DNA of 64,000 bases, taken from assembly GCA_964462785.1 (NCBI GenBank), contig CAYWZA010000002.1, positions 1,061-65,060 on the forward strand, written 5' to 3'. Made by a program: the position numbers and the translations under genes. Shown here piece after piece: positions 57,707-64,000 of this stretch (position 1 is the stretch's first letter; each line of letters starts with the position of its first letter). This DNA is from an uncultured Candidatus Saccharibacteria bacterium. GTDB taxonomy: Bacteria; Patescibacteriota; Minisyncoccia; Phycocordibacterales; UBA2100. The notes under the pieces were generated by a model. The model saw only the letters and a list, made by a program, of their open reading frames with translations, did no database searches and was not told where the DNA came from.

Positions 57707-59410
57707 ATGGGGGAAGACTTTAGACAGGCTCTAGCGTACTATGGGGAAATGGACGTCGCAGCAAACATACTCGATGCGCTAAAAAAATCGCTGGTCAGTG
57801 CGGGGGTGGAGCATCCCGATCCCAAGATTGAGTTTCCGGCAGAGTTTGTGCATGGCGATTTTGCGACGAACGCGGGGCTGGTGTATGGCAAACAGCTCGG
57901 GAAAAACCCGAAAATGTTTGCGGATGAAATTGTTGCGGCACTTGGCGAGATAGAGGGGGTTTCAAAAATAGAGGTAGCGGGTCCGGGTTTCATTAATTTC
58001 CACCTTGTGCCAGAGTATTTCTCCACTTTGCCGGTCTATATATCGCCACGTGAATGGGGGAAAGGTAGTGCACGGAGCGAGCAGGTGGTTGTCGAATACA
58101 CTGACCCCAACCCATTCAAAGCATTCCACATCGGGCATTTGATGAGCAATACGATTGGCGAATCGCTTGCGCGGCTTATAGAAAATACCGGAGCGAAAGT
58201 TGTGCGCGCAAACTATCAGGGCGACCTCGGTGTGCACGTGGCATCTGCGATATGGGGCATGCGCATGCTTGGCTTGGACCCCAAAAGCGCGGATGATTTC
58301 GGGCGCGCGTATGCCGCAGGCGCGACCGCATATAAGGAGGATGAGGCCGCAAAGAAAGAAATAGACGAGATCAACAAAAAACTCTACGACCGCTCCGATC
58401 TCGAACTCGGCGCTATATATGATACAGGGCGTACAGCATCACTCGATGCATTTGAGCGTATCTACGCGATGCTCGGCACGAAATTTGACCGTTACTTTTT
58501 TGAAAGCGAAACAGGATCGGTTGGAAAGGAAATAGTAACTGCTCATCCGGATATTTTTCCCGAATCAGACGGCGCGCGTGTGTTTAAAGGAGAGGAATAC
58601 GGATTGCACACGCGGGTGTTCATCAATGCACAGGGACTCCCGACGTACGAGGCAAAAGAATTGGGTCTTGAGACGATGAAAGCAAAAGAATATCCTGATG
58701 CCACGCAATTCATCGTGGTGACCGGCAACGAAATCATCGACTATTTTAAAGTCATTAGAAAAGTGTTGGAGCTTATCGAGCCCAAGACCGCCGCGCGTCT
58801 CATACATGTGCCGCATGGCATGATGCGTCTTCCTTCGGGGAAAATGAGCTCGCGTACGGGGAATGTCATCACCGGCGAATCATTGCTACATGATTTGGAG
58901 GAAGCGGCTCGCGAACGCGCGCGTGAAAGTCGCGCTGATGATATTGATACACTCGCGCGAGTGATTGCTGTTGGCGCGATCAAATATCAAATTCTACGGC
59001 AGGCAGTGAGCAGAGATATTGTGTTTGATGAGGCACAGGCACTGTCCCTCGAGGGTAACTCGGGACCATATATTCAATACGCACACGCGCGCGCATGTGC
59101 ATTGCTTGCAAGGGGAAGAGAGGCGGGGGTGTCACCAGCGGCACGAGTGGGGGAGCAGGTGAGCATCGTTGAACGGCTCATCGCGCGCTTTCCACATATT
59201 GCCGCACGCGCAGCATCAGAGCTCGCACCGCAACATATCGCCACATTTCTCATTGAGCTATCGAGCGCATTCAATGCATGGTATGCGCAAGAACAGATTC
59301 TCGACGGCACTGATAATGCCCCGCGCAAGCTCGCTATCGTTGCTGCCGTCGCCACAACACTCAAAAATGGACTGCATCTCCTCGGTATTGAAGCGCCAGA
59401 GAAAATGTAA
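57707..59410 (+). CDS. argS: Arginine--tRNA ligase
   Basis: The HIGH motif is FHIGHLMSN. The KMSK-like motif is KMSSRTG. The C-terminal DALR anticodon-binding domain is present. The start is uncertain because the track ORF begins at 57515 and overlaps tmk. Confidence 0.8.
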   Translation: MGEDFRQALAYYGEMDVAANILDALKKSLVSAGVEHPDPKIEFPAEFVHGDFATNAGLVYGKQLGKNPKMFADEIVAALGEIEGVSKIEVAGPGFINFHLVPEYFSTLPVYISPREWGKGSARSEQVVVEYTDPNPFKAFHIGHLMSNTIGESLARLIENTGAKVVRANYQGDLGVHVASAIWGMRMLGLDPKSADDFGRAYAAGATAYKEDEAAKKEIDEINKKLYDRSDLELGAIYDTGRTASLDAFERIYAMLGTKFDRYFFESETGSVGKEIVTAHPDIFPESDGARVFKGEEYGLHTRVFINAQGLPTYEAKELGLETMKAKEYPDATQFIVVTGNEIIDYFKVIRKVLELIEPKTAARLIHVPHGMMRLPSGKMSSRTGNVITGESLLHDLEEAARERARESRADDIDTLARVIAVGAIKYQILRQAVSRDIVFDEAQALSLEGNSGPYIQYAHARACALLARGREAGVSPAARVGEQVSIVERLIARFPHIAARAASELAPQHIATFLIELSSAFNAWYAQEQILDGTDNAPRKLAIVAAVATTLKNGLHLLGIEAPEKM

Positions 59411-59590
59411 AATTGGCTCAGTAGAGCCGTGTTATCCACAGCACTTGCGCTTTTCTGCAGGGATGATACAATATACACAGAGGTGAAGCAGGAGAAATGA
59501 CTCGAACTGCATGACTCACGCGGAAACGCGGTGGGTAATGGACTTCGGAGATACTCGGCTTTCATCAATGGGAAAAAGAAGGAGAGAACC

Positions 59591-59824
59591 ATGGAGCTCG
59601 TAGCATGCGCCCCGCGGGGTGATTTGGAGAAGACTCAGCAGGCGCGCAACGTGTTGCGCCAGCGTGTTGAGGGAGGACACTTTCCTTTTGTGTTGTACGT
59701 CGAAAGAGAGTGTTTCGTTATAAAAGACGCTTCCACATGGGAGCAATTCCGCAACCAGATTGCTCCCAAAATTGCAGGCGTCGAGTCTGCGTGGGCAGTC
59801 AAAAATTTGCAAGTTGCTGCATAA
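59591..59824 (+). CDS. Hypothetical small protein (about 77 aa)
   Basis: The ORF follows the RBS aaggagag and has no recognisable family. Confidence 0.3.
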   Translation: MELVACAPRGDLEKTQQARNVLRQRVEGGHFPFVLYVERECFVIKDASTWEQFRNQIAPKIAGVESAWAVKNLQVAA

Positions 59825-59906
59825 GCACTCGCAGCCCGCATCACACATTCGTGATGCGGGCGCTTTTTTTTGGCAGAAAAACTGCTGAGATGGTACGATA
59901 GAACGC

Positions 59907-62900
59907 ATGCAGGACTCCAACGTTAAAAAGAGCCAGACCGCTCAGCGGGAAGAGGCGACACTGGCGTTTTGGAAGGAACAAGACATTTTCAAAAAAACCC
60001 TCGCCCGTAAGGCGCCCAAAGGGGATTTTGTATTTTACGAGGGTCCTCCCACGGCAAACGGTCACCCTGCCATTCACCACCTCGAAGCGCGCGCGTTCAA
60101 GGATTTGATACCGCGCTATAAGGCAATGCAGGGGTATCGCGTGCGGCGCAAAGCGGGCTGGGACACCCATGGATTGCCCGTCGAGCTTGAGGTGGAGAAA
60201 GAATTGGGGCTCAAAAACAAGAAAGAGGTTGAGGGCTACGGCATCGAAAAGTTTAACCAGAAATGTAAAGAGAGTGTCCTGCGCTACATTGACGAATGGA
60301 AAGAATTTACCGATCGCATCGGTTTTTGGGTGGATCATGACGAGACGTACTTCACGTTTGCGAACGACTATATCGAATCGGTATGGAACATTCTGAAAAC
60401 CGTTGATGAGAAAGAACTCCTCTACAAAGACTATCGCGTCGTGCCCTGGTGTACGCGCTGCGGTACGCCTCTCTCATCGCACGAAGTTGCCGATGGATAC
60501 AAAGACGTCACCGACACATCTATCTATGTGCTGTTTAAATTGGCAGATCGAGATGAATATATCGCTGCGTGGACGACAACGCCATGGACGCTGCCAGGGA
60601 ATGTCGCGCTCGCGATCAATGAAGATCTCACCTATGGATTGGTTGCCATAAACGGAAAACGCGTATGGATGGCGAAAGATCGTGCACAGGCGCTGTTCCC
60701 TGATGCTTCAGTGGAGCAAACCAAGCAGGGGAAAGAGTTGTTGCAGCTCTCATACGAACCACTGTTCCCATACCTGCGCGATAGTGCGCCTGAAAGCCAG
60801 CGGGAATCATTTGAGCATGCATACAAAATTTTCTCCGCCGCGTTTGTGGGAGCGGAAGATGGCACCGGTGTTGTGCACATAGCGCCCATGTATGGTGCAG
60901 ACGACTTTGAGCTCGGCACAAAACACAAGCTTCCAAAACATCACGTGGTGAATGAAGAAGGGAAGTTTATCGATGCCGCAGGTCCGCTTGCGGGCATGTA
61001 TGTGAAAAAGGCAGACAAAGAAATCATCACGCTGCTCGGGGAAAAAGTGTTGCGCATCGAAGAGGTCGTGCACTCGTATCCGCATTGCTGGCGCTGTAAG
61101 AGCCCGCTCATCTACTATGCGCGCGATTCGTGGTACATCCGCATGTCGGAAGTGCGCAGCAAGCTTGTCTCGGAGAACAAAAAAATCCACTGGGAGCCGT
61201 CGCACATTCGCGATGGCAGATTTGGCGAATGGCTCAAGGAGGTGAAGGACTGGGCGATCAGCCGCAATCGTTTCTGGGGGACGCCGCTTCCTATATGGCG
61301 ATCAGAAAGCGGCAAGACGCTCGTCGTCGGGTCGCTCGACGAATTGAAAAAGCTTTCCAAAAAGTCGGGCAACTCATATTTCATGATGCGGCACGGTGAA
61401 TCCGAAGGTAACGTAACGCGCACTATCAACTCAGACCCGCATAAGCAGGTACCGCTTACCCAAAAGGGCAGAGAGCAAGTAGAAGAAGCTGCGAAGCAGA
61501 TGCAGCGCCCCGACTACATCTATGTGTCACCGCTTACGCGGGCACAACAAACTGCGCAGATTGTCGCGCAGGCATTCGGCATACCGGATGACCGCGTGAT
61601 TACCGATGCTCGTCTGCAAGAAATCGGCGTCGGTGTGTATGAGGGGCGATCACTCGATGAATACAATGCCGAGTTTCCAAATACGATGGAAGAATTTACG
61701 CGCAAGCCCGAAGGTGGAGAGAATTGGATGGATGTAAAGCGCCGCGCAGGTAATTTTCTGTATGATATTGAAACAAAACATCAGAACAGCACCATCCTGC
61801 TGATTTCACACGGCGATACGACGTGGCTCATGCAGGCTGCAGCATGCGGCGCCGACAAAACAGAAACACTTGCCACGGTGGGTGAAATGAAAAACGCGGA
61901 AGTGCGCGCGCTCGATTTCACACCACTCCCCGTGAATGGCGACTACGAGCTTGATGTGCACCGACCATACATAGATACGATTACGTTGGAGCACGATGGG
62001 GAAACATACGTACGCGTGCCGGAAGTGTTGGATGTGTGGTTTGACTCCGGGGCGATGCCGTTTGCGCAGGATCACTATCCGTTTGAGAACAAAAAGTGGA
62101 TTGACGGCGCGGGGTATCCGGCGGATTTCATATCCGAAGCGATTGATCAAACACGCGGGTGGTTTTACACACTGCACGCGATTGGCGTTTTGATGGGGCG
62201 CGGCGCAGCATACAAGAATGTGATTTGTTTGGGGCATTTGCTCGATGACAAAGGAAAGAAGATGTCCAAATCGCAGGGAAATGTCATCAATCCATGGAAC
62301 GTGCTGCCGAAATATGGCGCGGATGCGCTGCGGTATTGGATGTATGCGGTGAATGAGGCGGGAGCGTCAAAAAATTTCGACGAACGCACCGTCGAGGAGA
62401 TCGTAAAAAAGCACATGGGGCGGCTGCTCAACGTCCTTTCATTCTATGAATTGTACAAACAGGATGTTGTGCACACAGCGTCGCGCAAGAGCGCGCATGT
62501 GCTGGACCGCTGGATCATTGCGCGTATCGATACGCTTACGCACGACATGACTGAGCATCTCGATGCATATGAAATTGACCGCGCGGTGCGTCCTATTGCA
62601 GATTTTATCGATGATCTTTCCACATGGTACTTGCGCCGCTCACGCGATCGCATCAAAGGGGACAACGAGAAGGATAAGAAGCACGCGCTGGCGACACTGC
62701 GCTATGTACTGCTCGAGCTTTCTATATTGATCGCTCCGGCAATGCCGTTTCTTGCTGAGCATATGTATCAAGCGGTAGGCGGCAAGAAAGAGAGCGTACA
62801 CCTCGATAGCTGGCCGAAAGCAGTGGCGCTTAAAAAAGCGGAGCGTGATGTGCTCGACATGATGCAGAAAGCGCGCGATGTGGTCTCTCTCGGGCTTGAA

Positions 62901-63320
62901 GCGCGCGCCGCAGCGCAGATTAAGGTGCGCCAGCCGCTCCAGAGCGCAACGCTCAAAGATGATTTTGATGCGGAGGTACGCGCGACTATTCGGGATGAAC
63001 TTAATGTGAAAGAGATACGCGCAGACAAAGAACAGGATGCGCCAATTGTATTTGATCTGGTGATTACCGATGCGCTGAAGCGGGAGGGGGAGCTGCGTGA
63101 TATTTTGCGCGCCGTGCAGGAGTTGCGAAAAAAGAAAGGGCTGCAGCCGGGAGAGCCCACCATACTTATTGTCGGCACAGGAGTTGAGGGGCGCACGCGC
63201 ATTGAGGAGTGGAAAGAAGTCATTATGAAAGCTGCGGCGATCGAACACATCGAATATGATGCCAATAGCGGTGACCCGCTCGAGTTTGATGACTACGAAG
63301 TGAGGATGGCGCTAAAATAG
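59907..63320 (+). CDS. ileS: Isoleucine--tRNA ligase (type 2) with an inserted histidine-phosphatase (PGAM-like) domain
   Basis: The N-terminus GPPTANGHPAIHH...WDTHGLPVELEVEK matches the Thermus-type IleS, and KMSKS is present. The segment NSYFMMRHGESEGN....LLISHGDTT (about nt 61370-61950) has the RHG and H motifs of histidine phosphatases. It lies where the related IleS has only a short zinc-finger segment. Confidence 0.8.
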   Translation: MQDSNVKKSQTAQREEATLAFWKEQDIFKKTLARKAPKGDFVFYEGPPTANGHPAIHHLEARAFKDLIPRYKAMQGYRVRRKAGWDTHGLPVELEVEKELGLKNKKEVEGYGIEKFNQKCKESVLRYIDEWKEFTDRIGFWVDHDETYFTFANDYIESVWNILKTVDEKELLYKDYRVVPWCTRCGTPLSSHEVADGYKDVTDTSIYVLFKLADRDEYIAAWTTTPWTLPGNVALAINEDLTYGLVAINGKRVWMAKDRAQALFPDASVEQTKQGKELLQLSYEPLFPYLRDSAPESQRESFEHAYKIFSAAFVGAEDGTGVVHIAPMYGADDFELGTKHKLPKHHVVNEEGKFIDAAGPLAGMYVKKADKEIITLLGEKVLRIEEVVHSYPHCWRCKSPLIYYARDSWYIRMSEVRSKLVSENKKIHWEPSHIRDGRFGEWLKEVKDWAISRNRFWGTPLPIWRSESGKTLVVGSLDELKKLSKKSGNSYFMMRHGESEGNVTRTINSDPHKQVPLTQKGREQVEEAAKQMQRPDYIYVSPLTRAQQTAQIVAQAFGIPDDRVITDARLQEIGVGVYEGRSLDEYNAEFPNTMEEFTRKPEGGENWMDVKRRAGNFLYDIETKHQNSTILLISHGDTTWLMQAAACGADKTETLATVGEMKNAEVRALDFTPLPVNGDYELDVHRPYIDTITLEHDGETYVRVPEVLDVWFDSGAMPFAQDHYPFENKKWIDGAGYPADFISEAIDQTRGWFYTLHAIGVLMGRGAAYKNVICLGHLLDDKGKKMSKSQGNVINPWNVLPKYGADALRYWMYAVNEAGASKNFDERTVEEIVKKHMGRLLNVLSFYELYKQDVVHTASRKSAHVLDRWIIARIDTLTHDMTEHLDAYEIDRAVRPIADFIDDLSTWYLRRSRDRIKGDNEKDKKHALATLRYVLLELSILIAPAMPFLAEHMYQAVGGKKESVHLDSWPKAVALKKAERDVLDMMQKARDVVSLGLEARAAAQIKVRQPLQSATLKDDFDAEVRATIRDELNVKEIRADKEQDAPIVFDLVITDALKREGELRDILRAVQELRKKKGLQPGEPTILIVGTGVEGRTRIEEWKEVIMKAAAIEHIEYDANSGDPLEFDDYEVRMALK

Positions 63321-63344
63321 CTCACCCGGTAGTAGAAATTCAGC

Positions 63345-63614
63345 TTGATTATGTTCTACACTTACGTACTCGAGGGCAACAAACAAAAGGACCTTTACAT
63401 CGGGTTCACGCACGATTTGCGCAAACGTATTTCAGAACATAATCAGGGTCTTACCAAAACCACCAAAGGTGACACATGGCGATGTATTTACTACGAAGCA
63501 TGTCGTGAGGAAAAAGATGCTCGTCGCAGAGAACGTTATTTTAAAACCAGCCAAGGTCGGCGGCTTTTGAAACGTAGATTACAAGACTATTTCAGAGTGC
63601 GACGAGCAAGCTGA
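63345..63614 (+). CDS. GIY-YIG nuclease family small protein
   Basis: YTYVLEGNKQKDLYIGFTHDLRKRISEHNQG is the GIY-YIG motif. The protein is 89 aa. Confidence 0.65.
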   Translation: MIMFYTYVLEGNKQKDLYIGFTHDLRKRISEHNQGLTKTTKGDTWRCIYYEACREEKDARRRERYFKTSQGRRLLKRRLQDYFRVRRAS

Positions 63615-63621
63615 ATTCTCA

Positions 63622-64000
63622 CTACCGGGGCATGTACGAAAAGTACACCACAGACGCAGTGATACTTACTGAGCGTGAGCAAGGCGAGCGCGACAAGGTG
63701 TTTGCGCTCTACACGCATGATTTTGGATTGGTGTATGCGCGAGCGAGCGCAGTGCGCACCATGAGCTCGCGCATGCGCTCGGCGCTTACGTTGTTTGCCC
63801 CCGTCTCGGTTTCATTAGTGCGCGGCACCCGCGGCTGGCGTGTCACGGGTGCGCGACCAGCTTTATATACGAAACTGGTTCCGGAAGGGGCGCATACGTT
63901 TGCGCGCATTGCGCGGCTCTGCCTGCGCCTCGTGCGGGGCGAGGAACGAAATGAATATTTATTCAATACACTGCGGGGTGCTCGTGAGGCGTGTGCGGAG
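63622..64000 (+). CDS. recO: DNA repair protein RecO, partial (N-terminal, runs off the window end)
   Basis: MYEKYTTDAVILTEREQGERDKVFALYTHDFGLVYARASAVR resembles the RecO N-terminal OB-fold start. There is no stop codon in the window. Confidence 0.5.

Follow-up and report, generated by a model that had tools for sequence, protein, structure and literature searches.

The ileS gene in the window (the whole 64-kb stretch of DNA that was analysed) encodes a type-2 isoleucyl-tRNA synthetase (IleRS2) that carries a complete branch-1 histidine phosphatase domain nested inside its CP3 subdomain. The favoured explanation, whose chances are judged to be about even, is that this PhoE/PspA-like phosphatase acts together with IleRS as a unit on a small metabolite or nucleotide. 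The gene, its upstream neighbour and the relevant domains and motifs are located as follows.

57749..59410, + strand: argS, gene call on the NCBI contig, syntenic neighbour of ileS
59907..63320, + strand: ileS, type-2 isoleucyl-tRNA synthetase with nested phosphatase, an uninterrupted ORF of 1137 aa
59907..61358, + strand: host part 1 (aa 1-484), aligning to residues 12-480 of Thermus thermophilus (Tth) IleRS; N-terminal half of the Rossmann fold, CP core, CP1 editing domain, CP2 and first half of CP3
60069..60080, + strand: class-I signature in the non-canonical form AIHH (aa 55-58), read from the sequence
61359..61949, + strand: nested insert (aa 485-681), complete branch-1 histidine phosphatase domain plus linkers
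61389..61397, + strand: RHG motif (R495/H496/G497), aligning to the RHG of PhoE, with H496 as the predicted phospho-acceptor nucleophile
61539..61541, + strand: R545, second arginine of the phosphate pocket (motif SPLTRA), invariant, aligning to the Arg of PhoE 'SGRA'
61620..61622, + strand: E572, predicted general acid (motif RLQEIG), aligning to the Glu of PhoE 'RLREI'
61809..61811, + strand: H635, second catalytic His (motif ISHGD), invariant, aligning to the His of PhoE 'THG'
61950..63317, + strand: host part 2 (aa 682-1137), aligning to Tth IleRS 488-818; second half of CP3, C-terminal half of the Rossmann fold with KMSKS, anticodon-binding domain and type-2 C-terminal domain
62259-62273, + strand: KMSKS (aa 785-789), read from the sequence

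The protein scored 867 bits against the ileS equivalog TIGR00392 (cut-off 621.4), with the match split into two stretches by the insert. In Pfam, tRNA-synt_1 was likewise recovered in two stretches (E=2.6e-121), accompanied by Anticodon_1 and DUF5915. The AF2 model of the full-length nested IleRS (pLDDT 92.2, pTM 0.85) was matched by Foldseek to 8C8W, 8C8U, 8WND and 1ILE, with target TM values of 0.78-0.87. Among the best 120 full-length homologues, the class-I signature read GIHH in 100, AIHH in 10 and ALHH in 8 proteins, and the CP1 editing motifs WTTTPWTLP and GTG.VH were invariant. The G/AXHH signature variant of IleRS2 was described by Brkic et al. 2023, and the nomenclature of the CP subdomains follows PMC7191050 and PMC7955072. 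On the basis of the equivalog profile, the signature motifs and the overall fold with its editing, anticodon and C-terminal domains, the protein is an IleRS2. No second ileS was found within the 64-kb window.

The alignment to T. thermophilus IleRS (1ILE, 760 bits) was split, with Tth 12-480 corresponding to query residues 13-484 and Tth 488-818 to query residues 682-1002; therefore, ~197 aa occupy the site at which the Thermus enzyme has ~7 residues. An earlier note on this DNA had recognised a PGAM-like histidine phosphatase domain in a Thermus-type IleRS, and this is borne out by Pfam, TIGR00392 and the 1ILE alignment. The coordinates given there (61370-61950) and the motifs MMRHGESEGN and ISHGDTT were correct, and the estimated length of about 165 aa was somewhat low. 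In the AF2 model, the insert lies between the two helices of CP3, whose flanking strands and helices are still present: strands 463-466 and 471-473 and helix 477-483 form the first half of the subdomain, helix 688-691 and strands 693-703 the second. The suggestion that the domain replaces the zinc-binding connective segment has to be revised, since it is nested inside CP3 and the four zinc cysteines (CxxC...CxC) on either side of it are kept in 44 of the 120 insert-bearing homologues. These cysteines are present in Thermus and lost in the window IleRS and some of its relatives.

CP3 is a variable, peripheral subdomain, which differs in topology in each solved IleRS and serves as a docking surface in human IARS1. 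The insert starts ~20 residues past the CP2-CP3 linker (SRNRFWG), a segment that lines the tRNA CCA pocket in yeast IleRS. Its length is tightly fixed within the family (194-211 aa in the best 120 full-length homologues), and in GC content it does not differ from the host gene (0.525 vs 0.525). Both linker regions score a pLDDT of at least 95 in the AF2 model, and P675 in the C-terminal linker is invariant among the 120 homologues, which points to a rigid mounting and not to a floppy passenger.

A search with the His_Phos_1 profile (PF00300), as proposed in the earlier note, was strongly positive over aa 492-672 (E=1.2e-37, 130 bits vs a cut-off of 21.7, spanning positions 2-182 of the 194 in the profile), and a 207-aa stretch spanning the insert, when excised, reached 134.8 bits (cut-off 21.7). 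The domain is also catalytically plausible, as had been supposed, with all catalytic residues present and aligned to those of PhoE. R495 and H496 are invariant, both in the 120 homologues (120/120) and in a GTDB set including the window (81/81), and E572 is conserved in 96% of the former and in 80 of the 81 members of the latter, with Asp in the remaining one. Asn502, like the nucleophile His and the general-acid Glu, is retained in 80-81 of 81 species. Taken together, the catalytic set R495, H496, N502, R545, E572 and H635 is essentially invariant, while the remaining insert drifts; its residues are invariant or almost so even in 25 divergent inserts with identities down to 25%, those of the SR1 type included. 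Since the active site is invariant even though the insert as a whole is less conserved across the GTDB species set than the host (41% vs 57% identity), selection acts on the active site. Features specific to the family are a GNxYF motif ahead of strand 1 and an HGxPxW motif after the second His.

The profile score, the catalytic core and the alpha/beta fold with its complete cap subdomain assign the domain to branch 1 of the histidine phosphatases. In structure comparisons, its fold neighbours were generic metabolite phosphatases, which favours a small phosphomonoester as the substrate. More specific identities were considered and rejected. For dPGM, dPGM_arch gave 88-92 bits vs a cut-off of 225 and pgm_1 30 vs 81.7, with the other dPGM profiles scoring lower still. 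The nested and stand-alone forms both stayed below the cut-offs for CobC alpha-ribazole phosphatase (TIGR03162, 78-90 bits vs 162.9) and PspA phosphoserine phosphatase (NF045917, 68-87 bits vs 350), and the domain was also distinguished from SixA phosphohistidine phosphatase (TIGR00249), which has a compact fold of ~155 aa without a cap. As no curated equivalog (dPGM, CobC, PspA, SixA) was reached at its cut-off, a substrate is not transferable by homology. Neither the nested nor the stand-alone phosphatase matched any of the anti-phage defence models of PADLOC.

A survey of related IleS proteins, which the earlier note had called for, detected the same junction in all of the best 120 full-length homologues and in at least 515 GTDB species genomes, a number that is a lower bound because it was obtained with one narrow junction peptide pattern from a 7-sequence alignment, in a scan biased to Parcubacteria-type sequences. 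Where the names of these genomes were informative, they were of the Parcubacteria/Paceibacteria type. At 80 of 80 GTDB loci, a long open reading frame runs across the junction (1100-1270 codons where the contig holds the entire gene), and the reading frame of nested ileS is intact in two independent assemblies. The arrangement had been called unusual, which is right in that it is undescribed for any characterised aminoacyl-tRNA synthetase and has to be qualified for Parcubacteria-type Patescibacteria, in which the nested design is the norm. At NCBI, most nested proteins go under the bare name 'class I tRNA ligase family protein'.

Of the 150 cluster representatives nearest to the insert, 97 had the domain nested in IleS, 44 were short proteins and 9 were longer ones without IleS flanks, five of the latter being tandem phosphatase doubles. 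Seven long representatives scanned against Pfam contained no other synthetase type or other fusion partner, and some IleRS carry 2-4 tandem copies of the phosphatase. A domain phylogeny (neighbour joining, 82 sequences, 100 bootstraps) was saturated and recovered only the core stand-alone clade, with 55% support.

The closest stand-alone homologues of the insert are ~190 aa long; they are labelled 'broad specificity phosphatase PhoE' by JGI and 'histidine phosphatase family protein' by NCBI. In such split-type relatives, the phosphatase gene sits between argS and ileS. Nine homologue families from six different 50%-identity clusters were sampled, one of them on a 965-nt contig without neighbours. 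In seven of the eight families with longer contigs, the phosphatase adjoins an insertion-free ileS; in the eighth, the contig stops 165 nt past the phosphatase, so that adjacency holds in all families assessable (7/7 with a readable neighbour on the ileS side). The adjoining synthetases comprise 938-977 aa where complete, with two cut by the contig end. Upstream, argS was found in seven of the eight, often at a distance of 1-5 nt or with an overlap of 10-20 nt, and at several split loci the phosphatase gene lies closer to argS than to ileS. The usual order is argS-phosphatase-ileS-recO (loci L083-L096), a synteny shared by the window. At L083, ileS lies on the opposite strand, and at L087 and L092 adjacency holds despite a divergent ileS subtype. 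No His_Phos relic was detectable in the argS-ileS spacer or the rest of the 64-kb window. A small GIY-YIG ORF with flanking inverted repeats is located just downstream of the window ileS.

The host portion resembles other type-2 IleRS (1ILE; Priestia megaterium IleRS2, 8C8W) in its full-length fold, KMSKS, CP1 motifs, C-terminal domain and G/AXHH signature, and differs from them by the ~190 extra residues that form a second enzyme inside CP3 and by the loss of the zinc ligands found in Thermus. The insert, in turn, resembles PhoE (Geobacillus stearothermophilus, 1H2E/1EBB) and PspA (Hydrogenobacter thermophilus, 4IJ5) in its size of ~200 aa and its aligned catalytic residues, whereas identity is only 27-29%, the PspA equivalog is hit at 68-72 bits, far short of its 350, and both of these enzymes are free-standing, without a link to a synthetase. 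Like the insert, the editing domain CP1 of class Ia synthetases is a hydrolytic unit set into the connective-polypeptide insertions of a Rossmann fold; however, fold, chemistry and position are unrelated, CP1 being located before CP2 and the insert in CP3. A branch-1 phosphatase fused to a nucleic-acid enzyme is known from the bifunctional RNase H/acid phosphatase (NF005567, PRK07238), but that fusion is end-to-end with a different partner, and NF005567, although among the best NCBIfam matches, was hit at 78-93 bits, far under its cut-off of 326. A curated precedent for an IleRS with an extra enzyme domain is NF040702 ('isoleucine--tRNA ligase, N-acetyltransferase domain-containing'), in which, however, the extra domain is a GNAT (query 326 bits vs cut-off 1999); no paper on IleRS-GNAT proteins of this type was found. 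The histidine-phosphatase domain of TFIIIC tau55 (2YN0), a eukaryotic protein of the transcription apparatus, is a much more distant structural relative.

According to the favoured explanation, this is the IleRS of a bacterium of the Parcubacteria group, and one polypeptide would combine two catalytic activities, the ~190-aa phosphatase being mounted between the two helices of the surface subdomain CP3. The synthetase part is predicted to charge tRNA-Ile normally, since neither the signature motifs and KMSKS loop nor the editing motifs of CP1 and the anticodon domains are damaged; its AIHH motif predicts hyper-resistance to mupirocin. The full branch-1 machinery predicts hydrolysis of a phosphomonoester through a phospho-histidine intermediate: the phosphate would be held by R495, R545, N502 and H635, the phosphoryl group transferred to H496, and the leaving group protonated by E572. 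The substrate would most probably be a small phosphorylated metabolite or nucleotide, less so a protein. It weighs against this explanation that AMP is the sole obvious phosphomonoester in the IleRS reaction itself. Because stand-alone homologues adjoin insertion-free ileS in sister Patescibacteria, phosphatase and IleRS are proposed to function as a unit, which would be fused in the window and co-expressed, possibly as a complex, in split-type lineages. The adjacency in the latter could, however, represent inherited synteny or the source of a local rearrangement, without joint function; the closer spacing to argS at several loci and the opposite strand of ileS at L083 also count against coupling.

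Alternatively, and on the unlikely side of possible, the domain may be an ordinary broad-specificity or metabolic phosphatase that these tiny genomes require, captured into a tolerant surface loop of an essential, constitutive gene and mechanistically unconnected with isoleucylation, with the fusion only securing its expression. The variable and peripheral nature of CP3, with its use for docking in human IARS1, would suit such a role, as would the generic metabolite phosphatases among the fold neighbours and the JGI label of the stand-alone form, and we know of no phosphomonoester step in IleRS chemistry. Yet nesting and conserved adjacency to insertion-free ileS are two independent linkages to the same partner, the latter persisting at L087 and L092 with the divergent ileS subtype; the linkers are rigid and conserved, and the closest relatives observed were either nested in IleS or phosphatase-only proteins, short or in tandem, with no other fusion partner in the seven long representatives scanned against Pfam. 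A mere binding function, with the pocket as an allosteric sensor of a phosphorylated ligand or the domain mainly dimerising IleRS, is thought highly improbable. Many dPGM-like enzymes are dimers, tandem copies could form an intramolecular pseudo-dimer, and the catalytic residues are the same as those needed to bind phosphate; however, enzyme relatives that only bind their ligand have usually lost one catalytic residue or more, and the nucleophile His, general-acid Glu and Asn502 persist in 80-81 of 81 species. An origin as a selfish element (intein-like or mobile) or as an assembly or gene-calling artefact is practically negligible. The GIY-YIG ORF with its inverted repeats indicates that mobile DNA does visit the locus, but Pfam detected synthetase domains and His_Phos_1 only, with no intein or homing-endonuclease domain, and selfish insertion and artefact alike are effectively refuted by the equal GC content of insert and host, the frames intact in two assemblies and, as far as the contigs reach, at 80 of 80 GTDB loci, and the clade-wide conservation of the junction in at least 515 species. 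The idea of a selfish domain insertion raised in the earlier note is thus very unlikely, the fixed length and invariant active site also speaking against it.

A bolder proposal, considered quite unlikely, is that the phosphatase truly adds a third active site to IleRS, one working on the synthetase's own substrates. It might take up the CCA terminus of tRNA-Ile, as CP1 does, and strip off a blocking terminal phosphoryl group, or it might destroy a phosphorylated IleRS-directed inhibitor or by-product; the argS-phosphatase-ileS operon would then be the unfused form. The specific case of a site for the tRNA 3' end, at which the nested hydrolase would clear away a phosphate at the 2'/3' terminus or a phosphoryl group added by a toxin and thereby enable the charging of tRNA-Ile, is a slim prospect. 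It is consistent with the position of the insert ~20 residues after the SRNRFWG linker, with the precedent of CP1, itself a hydrolase nested within this connective-polypeptide series, and with the 2-4 tandem copies in some IleRS. Against it stand the complete cap subdomain, as in small-molecule enzymes, and the restriction of the domain to IleRS among synthetases in the 150 closest relatives, which would be odd for general tRNA repair; moreover, no branch-1 histidine phosphatase is, to our knowledge, known to act on RNA ends.

Eukaryotic synthetases are well known to carry additional catalytic domains. In the literature searched, no description was found of a pairing of IleRS with a histidine phosphatase or of a bacterial synthetase with a catalytic domain nested in it, and the recent literature on IleRS evolution that was checked contained no mention of 'phosphatase', 'Patescibacteria' or 'CPR'. 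Over a large portion of the Candidate Phyla Radiation, the nested design builds a complete second enzyme into the catalytic body of an enzyme essential for translation, and generic NCBI names hide both the nested protein and its stand-alone partner. In minimal genomes with little room for idle domains, the partnership of phosphatase and IleRS is a clear hypothesis. If the phosphatase acts on tRNA or ligands of the synthetase, this would be a novel step of quality control or repair during aminoacylation; if not, the family would provide a clean natural case of domain nesting versus operon linkage for one protein pair. Should it indeed be a third active site of IleRS, Patescibacteria would possess a repair or detoxification step of aminoacylation without counterpart in studied organisms.

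The ileS gene of the window encodes a single uninterrupted reading frame of 1137 aa, the product of which is a normal, intact IleRS2 with a histidine phosphatase domain nested inside it. The features of the gene and its surroundings are as follows:

57749-59410, argS, upstream neighbour of ileS
59591-59824, 77-aa ORF in the argS-ileS spacer, without Pfam match
59834-59871, strong intrinsic terminator in the spacer, downstream of the 77-aa ORF
59870-59899, promoter-like site in the spacer, after the 77-aa ORF
59907-63320, + strand, ileS
60069-60080, class-I 'HIGH' signature, read as AIHH (aa 55-58)
61296-61330 and 61977-61991, CP3 zinc-ligand positions in the insert flanks, occupied by S, gap, H and D
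61359-61949, phosphatase insert
63325-63347 and 63607-63629, 23-nt inverted repeats (87% complementary) bracketing the GIY-YIG ORF
63345-63614, GIY-YIG ORF of 89 aa, between ileS and recO

For the synthetase part, Pfam reported tRNA-synt_1 in two pieces (E=2.6e-121), Anticodon_1 and the type-2 C-terminal domain DUF5915, and the NCBIfam IleS equivalog TIGR00392 was matched with 867 bits (cut-off 621). The best Foldseek matches of the full-length model were P. megaterium IleRS2, yeast IleRS and Thermus IleRS (target TM 0.78-0.87). The KMSKS and CP1 editing motifs are intact, and they are invariant across the family of the 120 best full-length insert-bearing homologues. The class-I signature in this family reads GIHH (100/120), AIHH (10) or ALHH (8). 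These forms, the AIHH of the window included, correspond to the non-canonical G/AXHH motif of IleRS2, which was shown to be compatible with full activity and to confer mupirocin hyper-resistance (Brkic et al. 2023, PMC10485003).

The T. thermophilus enzyme (1ILE) was aligned to residues 13-484 (Tth 12-480) and 682-1002 (Tth 488-818) of the window protein, so that the break at 484/682 leaves about 197 residues where Thermus has about 7. The position and motifs that the earlier note had given for a PGAM-like domain were thus correct. The connective polypeptide of IleRS comprises the CP core, CP1 (editing), CP2 and CP3, the last bounded by residues 459-526 in yeast and 473-534 in C. albicans; no two solved IleRS share a CP3 topology, and zinc is bound by the Thermus version alone (PMC7191050, PMC7955072). 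An AlphaFold2 model of the full-length protein, generated from the 120 homologues (mean pLDDT 92.2, pTM 0.85), contains strands 463-466 and 471-473 and helix 477-483 before the insert, the first and last phosphatase strands at 490-495 and 666-669, and helix 688-691 followed by strands 693-696 and 699-703 after it. This order of elements places the phosphatase between the two CP3 helices. Both linkers were modelled at pLDDT ≥95 and P675 in the C-terminal linker (consensus PLPHN) is invariant in the family, which suggests that the domain is mounted in a fixed orientation. The accompanying proposal that the insert replaces the zinc-binding segment did not hold. Thermus IleRS has four CP3 zinc ligands (CxxC...CxC) that are lost in the window protein, whereas 43-44 of the 120 insert-bearing homologues retain both of the ligand pairs that flank the insert; zinc loss is therefore separate from, and independent of, the insertion. 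The ligands are also gone in one insertion-free relative (L083).

The His_Phos_1 profile search proposed in the earlier note gave E=1.2e-37 and 130 bits (gathering score 21.7), covering aa 492-672 and profile positions 2-182 of 194. The nearest solved sequences were PhoE of G. stearothermophilus (E ~1e-16) and the phosphoserine phosphatase PspA, whose RHG motif, second Arg, Glu and second His are all aligned in the insert. The curated equivalog cut-offs for dPGM, CobC, PspA, SixA and GpmB were never reached. In all 120 full-length homologues, N489, R495, H496, G521, S541, R545, H635 and P675 are invariant, with G497, N502, T518, E572, E605 and R613 conserved in at least 95%. Among 25 inserts diverged to 25-45% identity, SR1-type included, R495, H496, G521, S541, R545, E605 and H635 were still invariant, and in 80 GTDB species plus the window, R495, H496, N502, R545, E605 and H635 were kept in 81/81 and E572 in 80/81. 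Identity to the query is 41% for the insert and 57% for the host; the insert as a whole is thus the less conserved part, which means that selection centres on the catalytic pocket. Judged from its sequence, the nested domain is complete and apparently works as a phosphatase.

The nested form is widespread. PF00300 was present in each of the 120 homologues (51-74% identity, 1124-1270 aa), whose source names include Kaiserbacteria, Nomurabacteria, Paceibacterota and Pacebacteria. A scan of GTDB species genomes for the junction peptide GN[KSR]YFxMRH yielded 530 stretches, 515 of them confirmed, a lower bound because a single pattern was used; the genome names include Kaiser-, Nomura-, Campbell-, Adler-, Zambryski- and Vogelbacteria, Minisyncoccia and RAAC4_OD1_1. 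The junction lay inside a long open frame at 80/80 GTDB loci examined (1100-1270 codons where the contig spans the whole gene, shorter where it cuts the gene). When the insert alone was compared with 1.84 billion cluster representatives, 37 matched at E≤1e-30 and 1803 at ≤1e-10. The best 150 comprised 97 with IleS flanks, 44 short sequences and 9 longer ones without IleS flanks, 5 of which were tandem doubles. Seven long representatives from these 150 were scanned against Pfam; all carried IleS-type synthetase domains, and no other synthetase type was found among them. Divergent nested phosphatases in P0094 (labelled SR1) and P0117 share the CP3 site with the query at 25% identity to its insert (28% over the whole junction query), and have an extra ~40-aa segment after the third strand while retaining the catalytic R, H, R and H. 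Related IleRS (P0260, P0299, P0304, P0354, P0328) have two to four His_Phos_1 copies in tandem at the CP3 site; most of the copies seem to retain RHG and the second His. Tandem doubles also occur as stand-alone proteins of 360-450 aa (P0279, P0297, P0347, P0351, P0368). Three patescibacterial proteins of ~510 aa annotated as 'class I tRNA ligase' (P0044, P0047, P0054) start in the C-terminal third of the insert and may result from fragmented gene calling (frameshifts, or an alternative code in some lineages) or represent truly split ileS genes.

Full-length stand-alone homologues (190-205 aa, 33-45% identical to the insert) have the family-specific motifs GNxYF...RHGE and SHGDPLW in common with it and form a Patescibacteria family of at least 385 clusters at 90% identity. 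Genomic context was sampled for nine of them (P0264, P0275, P0296, P0305, P0309, P0315, P0467, P0490, P0498), with the sole contig of P0315 (965 nt) lacking neighbouring genes. In 7 of the remaining 8 contexts, the phosphatase adjoins an insertion-free ileS (938-977 aa where complete, two being cut by the contig end; CP3 of 73-79 aa where readable); in the eighth (P0264, L084), the contig stops 165 nt past the phosphatase, before any downstream gene. An upstream argS was found in 7/8. The usual order is smpB(-), argS, phosphatase, ileS, x, recO, ..., proS, with argS-phosphatase gaps of 1-5 nt and phosphatase-ileS overlaps of 10-20 nt or short gaps; at L083, ileS is convergent and argS and the phosphatase are still 5 nt apart. 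These split-type relatives also have a G/AXHH-type signature (GIHH or GVHH). The window order (argS, 77-aa ORF, ileS with nested domain, GIY-YIG ORF, recO) matches their frame (argS ... ileS ... recO). The stand-alone gene occupies the position of the argS-ileS spacer, and no His_Phos relic was detectable in this spacer of the window (59411-59906). Together with its repeats, the GIY-YIG ORF (63325-63629) resembles a small mobile cassette, and the corresponding site in split-type relatives holds small ORFs unrelated to it. At L087 and L092, the ileS beside the phosphatase belongs to a clearly different IleRS subtype (MGVHH), while the phosphatase and remaining neighbourhood are as in L088, which suggests that ileS was displaced in situ and the cluster retained. 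The corresponding signature in L088, L094 and L096 is PGIHH, and CP3 reads 'RERYWGTPLP' there versus 'KKRYWGLALP' in L087/L092. The stand-alone phosphatases of these five loci are closely related and lie in one shared neighbourhood.

Nesting and conserved adjacency are two independent links of one pair, and this Rosetta-stone and gene-neighbourhood evidence argues for phosphatase and IleRS being functional or physical partners. Inherited synteny is another possible reason for the adjacency, which may also have done no more than give rise to a local rearrangement, and it is possible, if rather doubtful, that the domain is a passenger housekeeping phosphatase without mechanistic link to IleRS. 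We give an even chance to the reading in which an active phosphatase, as one unit with IleRS, acts on a small phosphomonoester. In such a reaction, H496 would attack the phosphorus, with the phosphate bound by R495, R545, N502 and H635; E572 would donate a proton to the leaving group, after which the phospho-histidine would be hydrolysed by water to release phosphate. To our knowledge, AMP is the sole phosphomonoester of the synthetase cycle; none of the evidence here singles it out as the substrate.

The phosphatase fold is of the small-molecule type, and it appears improbable that the domain is a third site, analogous to CP1, that removes phosphate from tRNA 3' ends. A non-catalytic sensor or dimerisation module is slightly less probable still. 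That the insert is a selfish element or an artefact is extremely unlikely; its length is fixed (194-211 aa in the 120 homologues), it has the same GC content as the remainder of ileS (0.525 each), and the identical protein is recorded in two independent assemblies, the NCBI MAG GCA_016181805.1 (named 'Parcubacteria group bacterium') and a Logan assembly.

Both parts stem from well-known families, IleRS2 and the branch-1 histidine phosphatases of PhoE/PspA type; their combination is new. No paper describing the nested architecture was found in the open-access PMC/bioRxiv literature, and the terms 'phosphatase', 'Patescibacteria' and 'CPR' are absent from a 2023 study of 379 IleRS and a 2026 preprint on IleRS evolution. 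Nested-form sequences have been public for years, for instance in RAAC4_OD1_1 and the GW2011 genomes. The NCBIfam scan showed no model for a phosphatase-bearing IleRS; an exception model exists for IleRS with a different extra domain, GNAT. Most full-length nested IleRS carry only the NCBI name 'class I tRNA ligase family protein', and the stand-alone partner is labelled 'histidine phosphatase family protein' or 'PhoE' (NCBI/JGI), names that hide the link between the two. The window protein is a bifunctional polypeptide that joins an intact IleRS2 to a phosphatase with a complete, conserved catalytic set; this architecture occurs clade-wide, and the phosphatase is linked to ileS and argS.
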